A program made the translations under genes and the position numbers. Shown piece after piece: positions 9,318 through 14,334 of a stretch of 28,745 nucleotides of DNA. Position 1 is the stretch's first letter. Every line of letters begins with the position of its first letter. Source of the DNA: an uncultured Candidatus Saccharibacteria bacterium (GTDB taxonomy: Bacteria; Patescibacteriota; Minisyncoccia; CAYZDR01); contig CAZEUY010000003.1 in the NCBI GenBank assembly GCA_964515525.1, positions 1-28,745 on the forward strand. The letters run 5' to 3'. The notes under the pieces are model-generated. The model saw only the letters and a list, made by a program, of their open reading frames with translations. It was not told the DNA's origin and ran no database searches.

Positions 9318-10582
9318 TGAAAATACTCAAAAAAGTTCAAATTGATGGTGATATTAATTCTAAGGATTTTTTGAAATTCCTTGGTTTTTGGGATAGAAGA
9401 GCTATTTTGAAAATAGCAGAAAAATTAAAAGGGAAAAAAGTTGTGCATATAAATGCAGTTTCCACAGGTGGAGGGGTAGCAGAACTTTTGAAAAGTCTGA
9501 TCCCATATCTGAATTCCTTAGGAGTAGGTAGCAGTTGGTATGCGATTGATAGTGCAGAAGTTAGTAAAGATTTTTTTCGTTTTACAAACAGACTTCACAA
9601 TGCTTTGCAGGGATCTCCCACAGATTTTGCAAATGAAGAGTGGGATTTGTATAAAATTTTGAATAGAAAAATGGCAGCTGAGCTTGTAGAGCTTGATTAT
9701 GATGTTTTGATTGCAAATGATCCTCAAATGCTTTTTACTAGAAAATATGTTGATGGTCCGGGCAAAGAAATTTATTATAGTCATATAGATACATCAACAG
9801 CAAATGGTAATGTTTGGAAAGAACTCCTGCCGATTATAAATTTGTATGAAGAAATGATATTTAGCAATAAAGATTTTGTAAACAAAGAACTAAATAGAAA
9901 GAAAATAAATATCTTTACTCCAGCGATTGATCCATTGTCATTAAAACAAAAAATTGTTTCACGCGATGAGGCAAAAAAATACTTATCTCAATTTGGGATA
10001 AAAGAAAACTTCCCTTTGATTGTTCAGGTGTCCAGGTTTGATGTTTGGAAAAATCCGTTAGGAGTAGTGGAAGCATTCAGACTTGTCCAAAATTCATGCC
10101 CAGATGTTCAATTGGCCCTTGTTGGAATTAAAGAAGCAAAAGATAATCCTCAAGCAGATAAAGTTTATCAAGACATCGCAAACATTGCTGCAGGTGATCC
10201 AAACATTTCCCTGTTTTTTAATTCTTTGGGAATAGATGATATTGCAGAATTTACTATGATGATGCAAAACGGGGCAGATGTTGTTGTCCAGAATTCTATC
10301 AAAGAAGGATTTGGATTGACGGTGACGGAAGCGATGTGGAAAAGGAAAGCAGTAATCGGGGGAATAGCGGCAGGAATCAAAAAACAAATTAAAAATGAAG
10401 AGAATGGGTTTATTACAGCTACTCCAGAAGAGTTAGCGGAGAAAATAGTTTTTTTGTTGAAAAACCCAAAAGTGGCGGAAGTGATGGGTAAAAATGCGAA
10501 AGAAAGTGTCCGAAAAAATTTTTTATTTCCAAGATTAATTTTAGATCATTTGAAATTGTATGAATCAGTACTTAATCTGTAA
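9317..10582 (+). CDS. GT4 glycosyltransferase, trehalose synthase TreT-like
   Basis: VHINAVSTGGGVAELL, DPQ, QVSRFDVWKNPLGV, KEGFGLTVTEAMWK. Confidence 0.8.
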   Translation: MKILKKVQIDGDINSKDFLKFLGFWDRRAILKIAEKLKGKKVVHINAVSTGGGVAELLKSLIPYLNSLGVGSSWYAIDSAEVSKDFFRFTNRLHNALQGSPTDFANEEWDLYKILNRKMAAELVELDYDVLIANDPQMLFTRKYVDGPGKEIYYSHIDTSTANGNVWKELLPIINLYEEMIFSNKDFVNKELNRKKINIFTPAIDPLSLKQKIVSRDEAKKYLSQFGIKENFPLIVQVSRFDVWKNPLGVVEAFRLVQNSCPDVQLALVGIKEAKDNPQADKVYQDIANIAAGDPNISLFFNSLGIDDIAEFTMMMQNGADVVVQNSIKEGFGLTVTEAMWKRKAVIGGIAAGIKKQIKNEENGFITATPEELAEKIVFLLKNPKVAEVMGKNAKESVRKNFLFPRLILDHLKLYESVLNL

Positions 10583-10606
10583 TTGATAACAAACGGACAT
10601 CAACTA

Positions 10607-10634
10607 TTGACATTTTTTCGGTATTTGATAGAAT
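10607..10634 (+). promoter_or_regulatory. Sigma70-type promoter of the non-coding unit
   Basis: TTGACA-N16-TAGAAT with extended TG; a boxA-like GTTCTTTG follows at ~10660. Confidence 0.7.
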
Positions 10635-10672
10635 AGCGATATTAGAAATTTAATAGTTCTTTGTGAATATAT

Positions 10673-10745
10673 AGGCATGTAGCTCAGTGGTGGAGCTCCC
10701 TTGTGTCAAAGAGGAAGGTCGTTGGTTCAAATCCAGCCATGCCTA
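10673..10745 (+). tRNA. Atypical tRNA or pseudo-tRNA, anticodon GTC (Asp) by position
   Basis: Acceptor AGGCATG/CATGCCT, D arm GCTC-AGTGGTG-GAGC, T arm GTTGG-TTCAAAT-CCAGC; the anticodon stem has a C-A mismatch, loop GTGTCAA, 6-nt variable loop, A73, no encoded CCA. Confidence 0.7.
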
Positions 10746-10760
10746 TTTAAGTATAAGTAC

Positions 10761-10991
10761 AGAGTCGCGTATAAGGCGTTATCTCATAGCTTTGTTGGGG
10801 GAGGAAAAAATTTCATGACCCAACGCGCGATTCTTCTACAATAAAATAAATGGCGGGAGAATAATGTGATGTGTAAAACTCACGTTATGGGGCTGACCTA
10901 AAAATCAGCCACTCGCCACCAGATATGTGGTCAATTCAATTTATGTAGCATAATCATTCATTCCGGAATATTAAATAATTGGATTGACCAC
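10761..10991 (+). ncRNA. Three further tRNA-sized structured modules (10761-10834, 10852-10921, 10927-10991)
   Basis: Each module's ends pair (9, 6-7 and 15 bp) and enclose hairpins; AT-rich linkers; no credible ORF. Confidence 0.45.
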
Positions 10992-11001
10992 TAACCCATT
11001 T

Positions 11002-11032
11002 TACAGTCTCCCAGAGGGACTGTATTATTTTT
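11002..11032 (+). terminator. Intrinsic terminator closing the non-coding unit
   Basis: TACAGTCTC-CCAGA-GGGACTGTA stem (9 bp with one GU) followed by TTATTTTT. Confidence 0.65.
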
Positions 11033-11101
11033 GTCTTCTTTTGAAATGTGCATATAAATGCATATTTTTTTATACACAACGCAATTATGTCAACACAATC
11101 G

Positions 11102-11159
11102 TTGACAAGAAGGGAAGAAAAAGAATAGAATTTTTTAATAATGCAGATTATGTTATAAT
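11102..11159 (+). promoter_or_regulatory. Promoter candidates for mnmA
   Basis: TTGACA-N18-TAGAAT (11102-11131) and extended -10 TGtTATAAT (11151-11159). Confidence 0.55.
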
Positions 11160-11171
11160 AAACATAAGATT

Positions 11172-12263
11172 ATGGATAAAGAAAAGAAAATAGCAGTTTT
11201 ATTTTCCGGAGGGGTTGACTCTGTTGTTGTGACCAAAATGATGCAGGAACAGGGGTTTTTGTGTGAGCTTTTTTTCATGAAAACGGACTTTTTTTCAGAA
11301 AATATAGTCAAAAAAGCTGAAGAATCAGCGAAGATATTGGGACTAAAAATAAATATCATTGACCTTTCAAAAGAGTTCCAACAAAATGTTATAGAATATT
11401 TTAAGAAAGAATATCAGAACAATAGGACACCCAATCCGTGTGTGATGTGCAATAAGACAATGAAGTTTGGGTTGCTGTTTGATAAAGTTAGGAAGCTGGG
11501 GTTTGATAAAATAATTACAGGACACTATGTGAAAAATTTCAAATTTCAAATTTCATCCCAAGTCATGCGACGGGACAAGAATTTCAAAAAAAACGATAAA
11601 CAGCGAACCGAGTATCAACTGGAAGTTGCGGAAGATAGAAAAAAAGATCAGAGTTATTTTTTGTGGAATTTGACGCAGGAGCAGTTGGGGTATTTAGAAT
11701 TTCCAGTTGGAGGGATGCAGAAAAGTGAAGTTATTAAAATTGCGAAAGAGTTAGGCATTCCATTCGCGGATGAAGAAAGTCAAGATATATGTTTTTTAGA
11801 TGGAGATCACAATAAGTTTTTGCAAGAACATCTAAATCTGAAACAGGGAGAAATTAAAAACAAACAAGGAGAAGTTTTAGGAGAACATTTTGGATTACCA
11901 CTTTACACGATTGGACAAAGGAGATGGATTAAGATCGGTGGGACGGGACCGTATTATGTTTTAAGAAAAGACATCTTTGAAAATACACTGTATGTGACAA
12001 ATAGTTTTGATGACCCCGATCTATATGCTGATGAATTTACGATTAGTGATGTGAATTGGATTAGTGGAAATGCGCCAAAAGCTGAAAATCTATCAGTAAA
12101 ACTTAGATATCTGCACCCAGCTGTGGATATAAAGTCTATTGAAAATAAAGAGAATGGCGAGTATAATATAGTATTAAAGGAAAAACAGAGAGCGATTACA
12201 GCGGGGCAGTCGGGAGTGGTGTATGGGGGGTGTACACTGCTTGGTGGTGGAATAATAAAATAG
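11172..12263 (+). CDS. mnmA: tRNA 2-thiouridylase MnmA
   Basis: SGGVDS, TPNPCVMCN, TGHY, KDQSYFL, ESQDICF, YTIGQR, AITAGQSGV. Confidence 0.96.
   Translation: MDKEKKIAVLFSGGVDSVVVTKMMQEQGFLCELFFMKTDFFSENIVKKAEESAKILGLKINIIDLSKEFQQNVIEYFKKEYQNNRTPNPCVMCNKTMKFGLLFDKVRKLGFDKIITGHYVKNFKFQISSQVMRRDKNFKKNDKQRTEYQLEVAEDRKKDQSYFLWNLTQEQLGYLEFPVGGMQKSEVIKIAKELGIPFADEESQDICFLDGDHNKFLQEHLNLKQGEIKNKQGEVLGEHFGLPLYTIGQRRWIKIGGTGPYYVLRKDIFENTLYVTNSFDDPDLYADEFTISDVNWISGNAPKAENLSVKLRYLHPAVDIKSIENKENGEYNIVLKEKQRAITAGQSGVVYGGCTLLGGGIIK
11535..11586. repeat. In-frame AATTTCA heptamer array interrupted by a 24-nt hairpin insert inside mnmA
   Basis: AATTTCA x3, TCCCAAGTCATGCGACGGGACAAG (11556-11579), AATTTCA. Confidence 0.8.
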
Positions 12264-12279
12264 AAAATAACCAACGGGT

Positions 12280-12535
12280 AAATTAAAAAGCTCAAATTAA
12301 AAAATCCAAAGGAATGTCAACGAGCAAATTAAAAATTAAAAATGACAAATTAAAAAGGAATATCAAAAGCTAAATTAAAAAAACAATTTGATATTTTCAC
12401 CCCGCAGGGTGATCAGCCCGCGGGCTGAGATATTTTTTCCGCCCGATACGAATATATTCGTCCGATGCGGATCAGCCTCGGGCTGAAATTCCTTTTTAAT
12501 TTTTCATTTGGATTTTGAAATTTATTTGCTTTTAA
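12280..12535. repeat. Composite nested palindromic intergenic region
   Basis: Perfect 14-bp IR 12348-12361/12488-12501 enclosing TCAGCCCGCGGGCTGA, ACGAATATATTCGT and TCAGCCTCGGGCTGA hairpins. Confidence 0.75.
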
Positions 12536-12546
12536 TATTTTTGATT

Positions 12547-14334
12547 ATGATAACTTCCAATGAACTTCGTGTAAAATATGTTAATTTTTTCAAAGAAAGG
12601 AATCATAAAACCATTCCTTCTTCTTCATTGATTCCGGAGAATGATCCGACTACTCTTTTTATTTCAGCAGGAATGCAACCACTTGTTCCGTATCTTTTGG
12701 GGCAAAAGCATTTGGAGGGGAAACGGCTTGTTGATGTTCAAAAATGTATAAGAACAGTAGATATTGAGGGAGTTGGGGATAGCTATCACCATACTTTTTT
12801 TGAGATGATAGGAAATTGGTCGCTGGGAGATTATTTTAAGGAAGATGCCATTAAATGGACATTAGAATTTTTTACAGAGTCTTTGGGGATGCCGGTTGAA
12901 AGATTGGCCGTCACATGTTTCAAAGGGAATGAAAATGTACCGAAAGATGAAGAGGCAGGGCAGATCTGGGAATCTTTAGGAATGCCAAAAGAAAGAATAG
13001 CTTTTTTGGAAGATAACTGGTGGGAAGGCGGAGGAGCTATTGGTCCATGCGGTCCATGCACGGAGATATTTTATTGGAAGTTGAATGATAAAAGCGCTCC
13101 TGAAATTTTTGATCCGGAAGATAAAAATTGGGTTGAAATTGGGAATGATGTTTTGATGAGTCATGTGAAAGAAAATGGAAGCTATAGAGAAGCTGATCAG
13201 AAAAATGTTGATTTTGGAGGAGGTTTGGAAAGAATTTTAGCTGTTCTAAATAATTTTGATGACAACTATTTAACAGATCTCTGGCAACCGATTATTAAAA
13301 AAATTGAAGAAATTTCTGGCAAAAAGTATGATGAGAATAAAAAAGAGATGAGAATTATTGCTGATCATGTGAAGGCGGCAGTGATGATTATTTCGGATGA
13401 TAAAAAAATTATCCCATCAAGGAATGATGCAGGGTATATCGTAAGACGGTTGATTCGTCGAGCTGTGCGTTATGGAAAGATGTTGGGAGTGGAAAAAAGT
13501 TTTATTCCAGACATCGCTGAAACTGTAATTAATATGTACAAAGATATTTATGAAGAAGTTGGGAGTAATAAAGATTTTGTGTTGGCAGAATTGAGGCAAG
13601 AAGAAGAAAAGTTTAGTAAAACTTTAGGTAGAGGACTGAAAATTTTTGAGAAATATGTGGAATTTATTTGGGAAGGGCAACAGGAAGATAGCTCGAAAGT
13701 GTTGATGGGTGAGGATGCATTTAATTTATACCAGTCATTTGGATTCCCGATAGAGATGATAATTGAGGAAGCGGAAAATCGTGGGATAAAAGTTGATGTA
13801 GATGGTTTTGATAGACATGAAAAAGAACACAAAGAATTAAGTAAAACAGCGTCAGCAGGGAAATTCAAGTCTGGGTTGGCGGATCATTCTGATGAGACGA
13901 CAAAACTACACACTGTTGCCCATCTTTTACAAGCATCTTTAAGAAAAATTTTAGGGGAACATGTTGAACAGCGAGGAAGCAATATCAATCCCGAAAGATT
14001 AAGATTTGATTTTTCTCATCCAGATAAAATGACAAATGAGCAAATTGTAGAAGTGGAAAATATGGTCAATGAAATTATAGAAAAAGATTTTGATGTTGTC
14101 AGAGAAGAGATGTCTTCAGAAGAGGCGAAAACAAGTGGTGCGTTGGGATTGTTCGATTCCAAATATGGAAACACTGTGAGCGTTTACACCATCAAGGATG
14201 GCAACCGAATTATTTCCAAAGAGATTTGCACAGGTCCGCATGTTTCTAAAACTGGAGAAATTGGGAAATTCAAAATCAAGAAAGAACAGTCTTCCTCACA
14301 GGGAGTTAGAAGAATCAAGGCGGTCGTGGTTTAA
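12547..14334 (+). CDS. alaS: Alanine--tRNA ligase, short form without C-Ala domain
   Basis: TLFISAGMQPL, HHTFFEMIGNWSLGDYFK, GPCGPCTEI, IADH, editing HTVAHL and CTGPHV, GVRRIKA at C-terminus; start taken at ATG 12547. Confidence 0.95.
   Translation: MITSNELRVKYVNFFKERNHKTIPSSSLIPENDPTTLFISAGMQPLVPYLLGQKHLEGKRLVDVQKCIRTVDIEGVGDSYHHTFFEMIGNWSLGDYFKEDAIKWTLEFFTESLGMPVERLAVTCFKGNENVPKDEEAGQIWESLGMPKERIAFLEDNWWEGGGAIGPCGPCTEIFYWKLNDKSAPEIFDPEDKNWVEIGNDVLMSHVKENGSYREADQKNVDFGGGLERILAVLNNFDDNYLTDLWQPIIKKIEEISGKKYDENKKEMRIIADHVKAAVMIISDDKKIIPSRNDAGYIVRRLIRRAVRYGKMLGVEKSFIPDIAETVINMYKDIYEEVGSNKDFVLAELRQEEEKFSKTLGRGLKIFEKYVEFIWEGQQEDSSKVLMGEDAFNLYQSFGFPIEMIIEEAENRGIKVDVDGFDRHEKEHKELSKTASAGKFKSGLADHSDETTKLHTVAHLLQASLRKILGEHVEQRGSNINPERLRFDFSHPDKMTNEQIVEVENMVNEIIEKDFDVVREEMSSEEAKTSGALGLFDSKYGNTVSVYTIKDGNRIISKEICTGPHVSKTGEIGKFKIKKEQSSSQGVRRIKAVVV

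Follow-up and report, generated by a model that had tools for sequence, protein, structure and literature searches.

We analysed a stretch of 28,745 nucleotides (nt) from an uncultured Candidatus Saccharibacteria bacterium (contig CAZEUY010000003.1 of assembly GCA_964515525.1, positions 1 to 28,745 of the forward strand), hereafter called the window, and found that its positions 10607-11032 hold a real non-coding RNA gene cluster, which runs from a promoter to a terminator and contains no credible open reading frame (ORF). The unit is composed of a tRNA gene (M1) and three further folded modules (M2, M3 and M4), of which M3 is the core found in all four species known to carry the unit. M3 reproduces just the top half of a tRNA, that is, the acceptor/T-arm half together with a terminal ACCA, and is not itself a tRNA. 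We estimate a probability of about 0.5 that the cluster is a stable-RNA operon that the tRNA-maturation enzymes would cut into its parts, M3 being set free as a minihelix RNA that ends in CCA and does not decode. As far as sequence searches reach, the unit is so far confined to four closely related ultra-small bacteria of the candidate phyla radiation (CPR).

M3, the constant core of the unit

The unit of this genome (G000) was compared with the corresponding loci of two other species of the genus (G001 and G002), of a fourth species (S4) and of a sister genus (G003). The covariance model built on M3 (R2) recovered the module in all four species, with scores of 44-95 bits. M3 is 70-86 nt long in these species and folds into a three-way junction, in which an acceptor-like stem encloses a variable hairpin and a T-arm-like hairpin. 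The unpaired ACCA at its end, which had been noticed in a preliminary description made from the sequence alone, was seen in the fold and was invariant in the four species. Both edges of M3 were in fact invariant, with AUAAAU followed by GGCGGG at the 5' side and CGCC followed by ACCA at the 3' side (that is, AUAAAUGGCGGG and CGCCACCA), where the flanking spacers could not be aligned and the MnmA proteins were just 73-79% identical. The AUAAAU, in which A(-2) and U(-1) are the relevant bases, probably serves as a leader of the RNase P type.

The pairing of M3 was also conserved. In the four-sequence alignment 90% of the cells were paired, compared with 35-53% when the partners were slid, and 6 pairs were changed on both sides, although these figures are only indicative, as the alignment had been fitted to the model and compares close kin. 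Both inner hairpins retained their pairing through changes on both sides. The seven positions of the acceptor-like stem include G1-C, G2-C, C3-G, G4-C and G5-C/U, and an arm of 5-6 base pairs (bp) with an A-rich loop abuts the 3' strand of this closing stem, so that a continuous stack of 12-13 bp is possible. In terms of sequence features, an acceptor stem with a 5-6-bp arm, a 3' RCCA and U(-1), which together define a minihelix, were found in M3 of all four species. The invariant ACCA is not a genomic default, since only about 9 of the 39 tRNA genes in the genome encode CCA and M1 is not among them. M3 resembles a tRNA in its size, its 7-position acceptor stem, its A73-CCA end, the adjoining 5-6-bp arm and its U(-1) leader, but has no D arm, no variable region, no 7-nt or conserved anticodon loop and no GTTCRA T-loop consensus. 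Lacking the D arm, the T-loop consensus and a conserved anticodon, it cannot decode.

The folded molecule is the RNA of the plus strand, since the stems of M2, M2b (a module found in two relatives) and M3 contained 24 G-U cells against 4 A-C cells on that strand and the minus strand folded worse. Against dinucleotide shuffles, to which all z-scores given here refer, positions 10746-11001 had a fold z of -5.9, and the single modules likewise folded better than their shuffled controls (z = -4.0 for M2, -4.6 for M3 and -4.6 for M4). The intergenic DNA of this 664-kb genome is, however, rich in hairpins, with a mean z of -2.4 and a 5th percentile of -7.3 among 294 windows taken from 96 intergenic gaps of at least 200 nt. 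Structure alone is thus not exceptional, and the argument rests on the comparison with relatives.

Such a background would suit a non-functional residue, namely a decaying tandem tRNA array with neutral palindromic insertions. Fifteen of the intergenic windows scored better than the unit, modules were gained and lost between species, the ends of M3 look tRNA-derived, and M1 is atypical and redundant. We nevertheless regard a mere residue as unlikely. Both ends of M3, including the unpaired ACCA and the AUAAAU, remained invariant next to spacers that no longer align, and the homologs showed compensatory changes rather than mere decay (5 pairs in M2, 1 in M2b and 6 in M3). In addition, the near-consensus promoter was conserved in four species, and M3 was retained in G001 after the loss of the tRNA and M2. 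The decaying tRNA operon proposed in the preliminary description may account for the origin of M3, but the invariance of its ends and the compensated base changes contradict decay at the present day.

Long hairpins were observed 3' of many genes and tRNAs in this genome, and many intergenic gaps were filled with long hairpins of near-perfect pairing, whose z reached -11 (for example C17:14887-15136, C18:437-686, C2:16880-17112 and C10:15082-15331). The pair TTCTTCGCGTAGCGAAGAA plus GCCCTTCG..CGAAGAAGGG recurred 3' of CCA-encoding tRNA-Met and tRNA-Lys genes. A genome-wide scan with a descriptor of a minihelix followed by NCCA returned 60 sites, compared with 22-35 in shuffled sequences, and was too unspecific to be used.

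Layout of the unit and its variation among species

Table 1 Features of the RNA unit, in window positions.
Feature	Position	Strand	Basis
Sigma-70-type promoter, TTGACA-16-TAGAAT with extended -10 TG	10607-10634	+	11/12 matches
A/U-rich 5' leader, includes GTTCTTTG at 10657-10664	10635-10672	+	read from sequence
M1, tRNA(GUC), no encoded CCA	10673-10745	+	ARAGORN and Rfam tRNA
M2, three-way junction, 9-10-bp closing stem and two hairpins	10761-10834	+	minimum-free-energy fold
AUAAAU directly 5' of M3	10846-10851	+	identical in all four species
M3, core	10852-10921	+	found in all four species
M3 acceptor-like stem	10852-10857 paired with 10912-10917	+	fold
M3 variable hairpin	10861-10888	+	fold
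M3 T-arm-like hairpin	10891-10910	+	fold
M3 unpaired ACCA	10918-10921	+	fold
M4, hairpin, 15-bp closing stem with one U-G pair	10927-10991	+	minimum-free-energy fold
Intrinsic terminator, 9-bp stem (11002-11024) then T run	11002-11032	+	stem kept in G002 and S4

The unit occupies most of a 590-nt gap (window 10583-11171) between a gene for a TreT-type glycosyltransferase and mnmA. Its neighbours encode an SdpI-family protein, the TreT-type glycosyltransferase, MnmA and AlaRS, and no integrase was found nearby. The promoter and the terminator that had been described earlier were both recovered at their positions, and transcription would start at about 10641. The promoter was common to all four species, though the first module differs among them, and the terminator was kept in G002 and S4 with base changes that preserve its stem. 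The 5' leader could be aligned in part in G002 and S4; the boxA-like sequence that had been pointed out in it is present and was retained in G002, but not in S4 or G001.

ORFs inside the unit did not exceed 47 amino acids, and none was conserved when the loci of the relatives were compared, in agreement with the earlier view that the unit is non-coding. Two coding candidates were rejected. A 9-codon ORF (MTQRAILLQ, 10815-10844) in the apical loop of M2, opened by an ATG 10 nt after a GGAGG (10797-10844), was absent from G002 and S4, and an AUG at the edge of M3 did not correspond to conserved coding in the relatives.

M1 had been described as a tRNA-like cloverleaf. The cloverleaf was found, but M1 is a real tRNA gene and not merely tRNA-like, because it was called as tRNA-Asp(gtc) by ARAGORN, as the sole gene called in the region, and matched the Rfam tRNA family (RF00005) with 50.2 bits (cut-off 29). 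This second copy is atypical, having A1-U72, A73 and a C-A mismatch in its anticodon stem, and shows no close likeness to the canonical GC-rich tRNA-Asp, which is located on contig C38. An ortholog of M1 was found in G002 (50.4 bits) and none in S4 or G001; the anticodon-stem mismatch is single in both G000 and G002, at different pairs. The tRNA upstream of mnmA was also observed to change its identity, being GUC in G000 and G002, CAC (Val) in G003 (L154:862-934) and CGG (Pro) in L158 (L158:2313-2386). In both G000 and L158 it sits between the TreT-type glycosyltransferase gene and mnmA.

The closing stem of M2 (AGAGUCGCG/CGCGAUUCU) and its inner arm GUUGGG/CCCAAC, both reported earlier, were reproduced in the minimum-free-energy fold, as was the 15-bp stem that closes M4. 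M2 was kept in G000, G002 and S4, and its 5 pairs changed on both sides were counted in a MAFFT alignment of the three species that was made without reference to structure. In the closing stem of M2b, the single pair changed on both sides was accompanied by two G-U transitions. The compensatory changes show that selection acts on the structure of M2 and M3 at the least. M4 retained its stem sequence in G002 with a variable interior, and the long hairpins at its position in S4 and G001 were unrelated to it.

The content of modules varied among the four species. In G000 the order is promoter, tRNA, M2, M3, M4a and terminator, and G002 carries the same set with M2b added between M2 and M3. In S4 the promoter is followed by a long hairpin, M2, M2b, M3, a 130-nt hairpin, a terminator-like hairpin and the terminator, and in G001 by M3, an unrelated hairpin and a different terminator. 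BLAST searches with the unit against its own genome and 60 relatives gave a full match in G002 only and matches to the promoter and the M3 edge in G001. S4 (locus L155, on a contig of the Joint Genome Institute, JGI) was located by way of its MnmA (76% identical), and the locus L157 repeats the M3 of G001. When R2 and a second covariance model, built on M2 (R3), were each run against 150 relatives of the class, they found only the genus. M3 was absent from G003 and from the locus L158 (58% MnmA identity), where a tRNA of another identity stands before mnmA. The sequencing runs listed as containing this DNA were lake-water metagenomes, which may be its source, with no RNA run among them; in four of these metagenomes we found only contigs identical to G000 and G002-like contigs.

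Several further candidates were rejected. Weak matches of R2 and R3 (L078, L079, L161 and L162) were coding or without context, and mutually unlike. A loose pattern (GGCGG..CGCCACCA) in 400 genomes of the class hit mostly by chance, with a control pattern about equally frequent. A strict M3 pattern in metagenome contigs returned 54 stretches and no true M3; three such stretches that scored 28.8 bits were one coding sequence (z = -1.6). A GGCGGA hairpin in G003 was not significant either (z = -1.6).

The shared layout raised the question of whether the unit acts as one undivided multi-domain non-coding RNA, a scaffold or sponge built as beads on a string. All modules are enclosed by one promoter and one terminator, M2 and M3 are both structurally selected, and the order M2-(M2b)-M3 is kept in three species. 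The large structured RNA that had been offered as one earlier interpretation nevertheless fits poorly, because the module content differs among close species and G001 has only M3 and an unrelated hairpin. Moreover, no long-range helix joined the modules in the predicted fold, and the true tRNA inside the transcript would need excision to function. We therefore give an undivided RNA a low probability.

The presence or absence of discrete modules by species, together with the location of M2 directly 3' of the tRNA in two species, could also suggest that the modules 3' of the tRNA are small elements inserted at a tRNA gene, or scars left there by integration. We consider such an origin decidedly unlikely. 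Every module was single-copy in its own genome, no copy of the 3' end of M1 was present in the closing stems of M2 or M4 when the sequences were read directly, no integrase lies nearby, and the models of M2 and M3 found nothing credible in the 150 relatives.

The adjacency of the unit to mnmA and alaS had been taken as a hint of function. In G000, G002 and G001 the unit does lie directly upstream of these genes, and its terminal terminator could be regulated, as in a cis-acting leader of attenuator or T-box type that controls read-through into mnmA-alaS. Such a leader is very improbable. The mnmA gene has its own strong promoter 3' of the terminator (11102-11131), S4 has two terminators and an unrelated ORF before mnmA, no T-box or riboswitch was matched in Rfam at E<=10, and the RNA itself carries ACCA rather than a sequence binding one. 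The link of the unit to mnmA and alaS looks positional only. The intervening ORF of S4 encodes 155 amino acids (L155:1850-2317, plus strand); its only Pfam match was LPD3 (22.4 bits, below the cut-off), and it is unrelated to a 131-amino-acid ORF at the same place in G003. AlaRS (12508-14334, plus strand) is short, with 608 amino acids that comprise the catalytic core and the second additional domain and no long C-terminal part. Short AlaRS proteins of 594-597 amino acids were also found in S4 and on a G001-like contig.

Comparison with known RNAs and the origin of M3

Rfam was searched with the whole window at gathering scores and with positions 10500-11250 at E<=10. In the latter region M1 was the sole credible match, as a tRNA, and M2, M3 and M4 were unmatched; M3 was not called by ARAGORN. 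Weak matches to rli45, mir-96, BTnc201 and sau-41 were far below their cut-offs and were discarded. The tRNA model gave no match at E<=10 for M2, M2b or M4, which show no tRNA features. The preliminary description is borne out in that this is one non-coding transcription unit of self-closed, tRNA-sized modules, but the array of four tRNA mimics that it proposed is not supported as such, since M1 is a real tRNA and only M3 mimics a tRNA. Elsewhere in the window, a DUF3800-II RNA (RF02961) was found at 1469-1532 on the minus strand, with 65.5 bits against a gathering score of 43.2.

The RNA of the signal recognition particle (SRP), 6S RNA and RNase P RNA were dismissed as identities of M3 or M4, as RF00169, RF01854, RF00013 and RF00010 had no match in the region. 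RF00169, RF01854 and RF00013 were also without a match in the whole genome. RF00169, the model of the small bacterial SRP RNA, was unmatched in 26 genomes (this one and 25 relatives of the class), several of them 100% complete, while 14 controls were mostly positive; the SRP RNA of the class may either be too divergent for the models or have been missed by the first filter of the search tool.

The transfer-messenger RNA (tmRNA) offers a closer likeness, since its tRNA-like domain (RF00023) shares with M3 a stack of acceptor stem and T arm, a 3' ACCA and the absence of an anticodon. That domain is processed like a tRNA, whereas for M3 such processing is only proposed. M3 differs from it in having C3-G70 instead of the alanine mark G3-U70, and in lacking a T-loop consensus and a coding part. 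In this genome the tmRNA model gave 20 matches, among them real tRNAs and a tRNA-like RNA on contig C58, but not M3; the genome's own tmRNA is located on contig C20. The tRNA-like RNA on C58 (L038; C58:454-524, minus strand) is a 71-nt tRNA-shaped RNA that was not called by ARAGORN. Its acceptor stem is GGGGGUG/CACCUCC with G3-U70. A D stem is lacking, an arm of 5 bp carries a 15-nt loop, the T arm is canonical (GGGG-UUCAAUU-CCCC) and the 3' end is ACAA; the RNA is accompanied by its own TATAAT box and terminator. It scored 42.3 bits on the tmRNA model through the tRNA-like ends of the model, and partial matches to its T arm only were found in five relatives.

Small non-decoding RNAs that are freed from a precursor by tRNA-processing enzymes include mascRNA/menRNA and RNAs derived from the spacers of bacterial tRNA operons, such as 3'ETS-leuZ, and some of them are CCA-ended. 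These belong to another domain of life or have another structure, and they show no sequence relation to M3, whose processing is only proposed. The C4 antisense RNA of phages P1 and P7 is, like M3, small and non-decoding, with a closing stem and two hairpins. C4 RNA is reported to be released by RNase P from a longer precursor, owing to its likeness to a pre-tRNA (PMC2190699, PMC4919922). M3 had no match to the C4 family in Rfam at E<=10, and it is chromosomal in CPR bacteria and without phage context. Pairing between a loop and a target, as in C4 RNA, was rejected, as a lone 7-nt match in G000 to the flank of the terminator was lost in the other three species (compared by eye). No relevant paper was found on tRNA-like RNAs of CPR bacteria or Saccharibacteria. 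For M3 we found no Rfam family and no paper; its closest kinds are the RNase P-processed mimics of tRNA ends, and its range appears to be narrow.

To place the origin of M3, we compared its 5' strand and last 22 nt with the tRNAs of the genome. The initiator-type tRNA-Met (C40) came first or joint first in all four species, with 19-22 of 29 positions; it led by 2-3 of these positions in G001 and S4 and was level with another tRNA in G000 and G002. The tRNA-Met on C40 is marked by a 1:72 mismatch and by an anticodon stem with three G-C pairs at its base. The T-like arm of M3 in G002 (GUUGA/UCAGC) differs by a single pair from that of M1 (GUUGG/CCAGC). Derivation of M3 from a tRNA gene is plausible on these comparisons, in which the ends would not single out the donor.

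M3 further shares G2-C71, C3-G70 and A73-CCA with Met tRNA, and its 5' strand is one base off both Met tRNAs of this genome. A speculative extension, which we consider highly unlikely, is that M3 is a working acceptor-end mimic of the initiator/methionine tRNA, which would be processed, CCA-bearing, and aminoacylated or bound by an enzyme that reads its end, such as MetRS, the formyltransferase, IF2 or peptidyl-tRNA hydrolase. If this were true, these minimal-genome bacteria would have in M3 a dedicated carrier of aminoacyl groups outside the ribosome, or a regulator that acts on translation initiation by titration.

Proposed processing and meaning of the RNA operon

In the stable-RNA operon that we favour, the near-consensus promoter would drive, and the intrinsic terminator would close, one plus-strand transcript, with cuts falling in the A/U-rich linkers between the modules. 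RNase P would cleave between AUAAAU and the following G, setting the 5' end of M3 and likewise that of M1, and the A/U-rich linker that follows CCA would be removed by an endonuclease together with 3' trimming, which would stop at CCA. The co-transcribed tRNA(GUC) would be matured by the same route. For a protein that recognises the acceptor ends of tRNAs, the freed M3 may then be a ligand, a substrate or a competitor by way of its own acceptor end. The companions or spacers in this scheme would be M2, M2b and the M4-type hairpins, each closed on itself and open to being swapped, gained and lost, with M2 itself structurally selected. M3 would most likely have come from a tRNA gene.

This operon is favoured by the presence of a true tRNA that is predicted to be co-transcribed with M3 in two species, G000 and G002. 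The features of M3 are also consistent with what is known of the enzyme. Bacterial RNase P contacts the stack of T stem and acceptor stem, the RCCA through pairing with L15, U(-1) and A(-2) (PMC4919922), and its natural non-tRNA substrates pre-4.5S RNA, tmRNA and phage C4 RNA resemble pre-tRNAs (PMC4919922, PMC2190699).

Several observations weigh on the other side. The RNase P RNA of this genome (RF00010) was matched only as a 15-bit fragment at a contig end (C24), which does not show a GGU in L15 that would read CCA. M3 was neither detected by the Rfam tRNA model at E<=10 nor by the tmRNA model, and its T-like loop (UAAAAA, UGAAAG and CCUAAAAA) is not the T-loop consensus. Three of the four species have a non-standard pair in the acceptor-like stem, at position 6 or 7. 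The comparison covers four species that are close kin, which keeps the counts of covariation small, and the likeness of M3 to the initiator tRNA is marginal. Finally, the region of the unit (z = -7.3) ranked 16th among the 294 intergenic windows, and since hairpin-rich spacers are common, some modules may be without function.

Four related, pared-down CPR genomes appear to keep a strongly promoted RNA operon whose constant product would mimic a tRNA solely at its acceptor/CCA end. Should M3 be processed and bear a CCA end, it would be a chromosomal addition from bacteria to the few non-decoding mimics of tRNA ends, such as tmRNA, C4 RNA and mascRNA. It would further serve as a compact natural substrate for the study of RNase P, the CCA-adding enzyme and synthetase recognition in these organisms.

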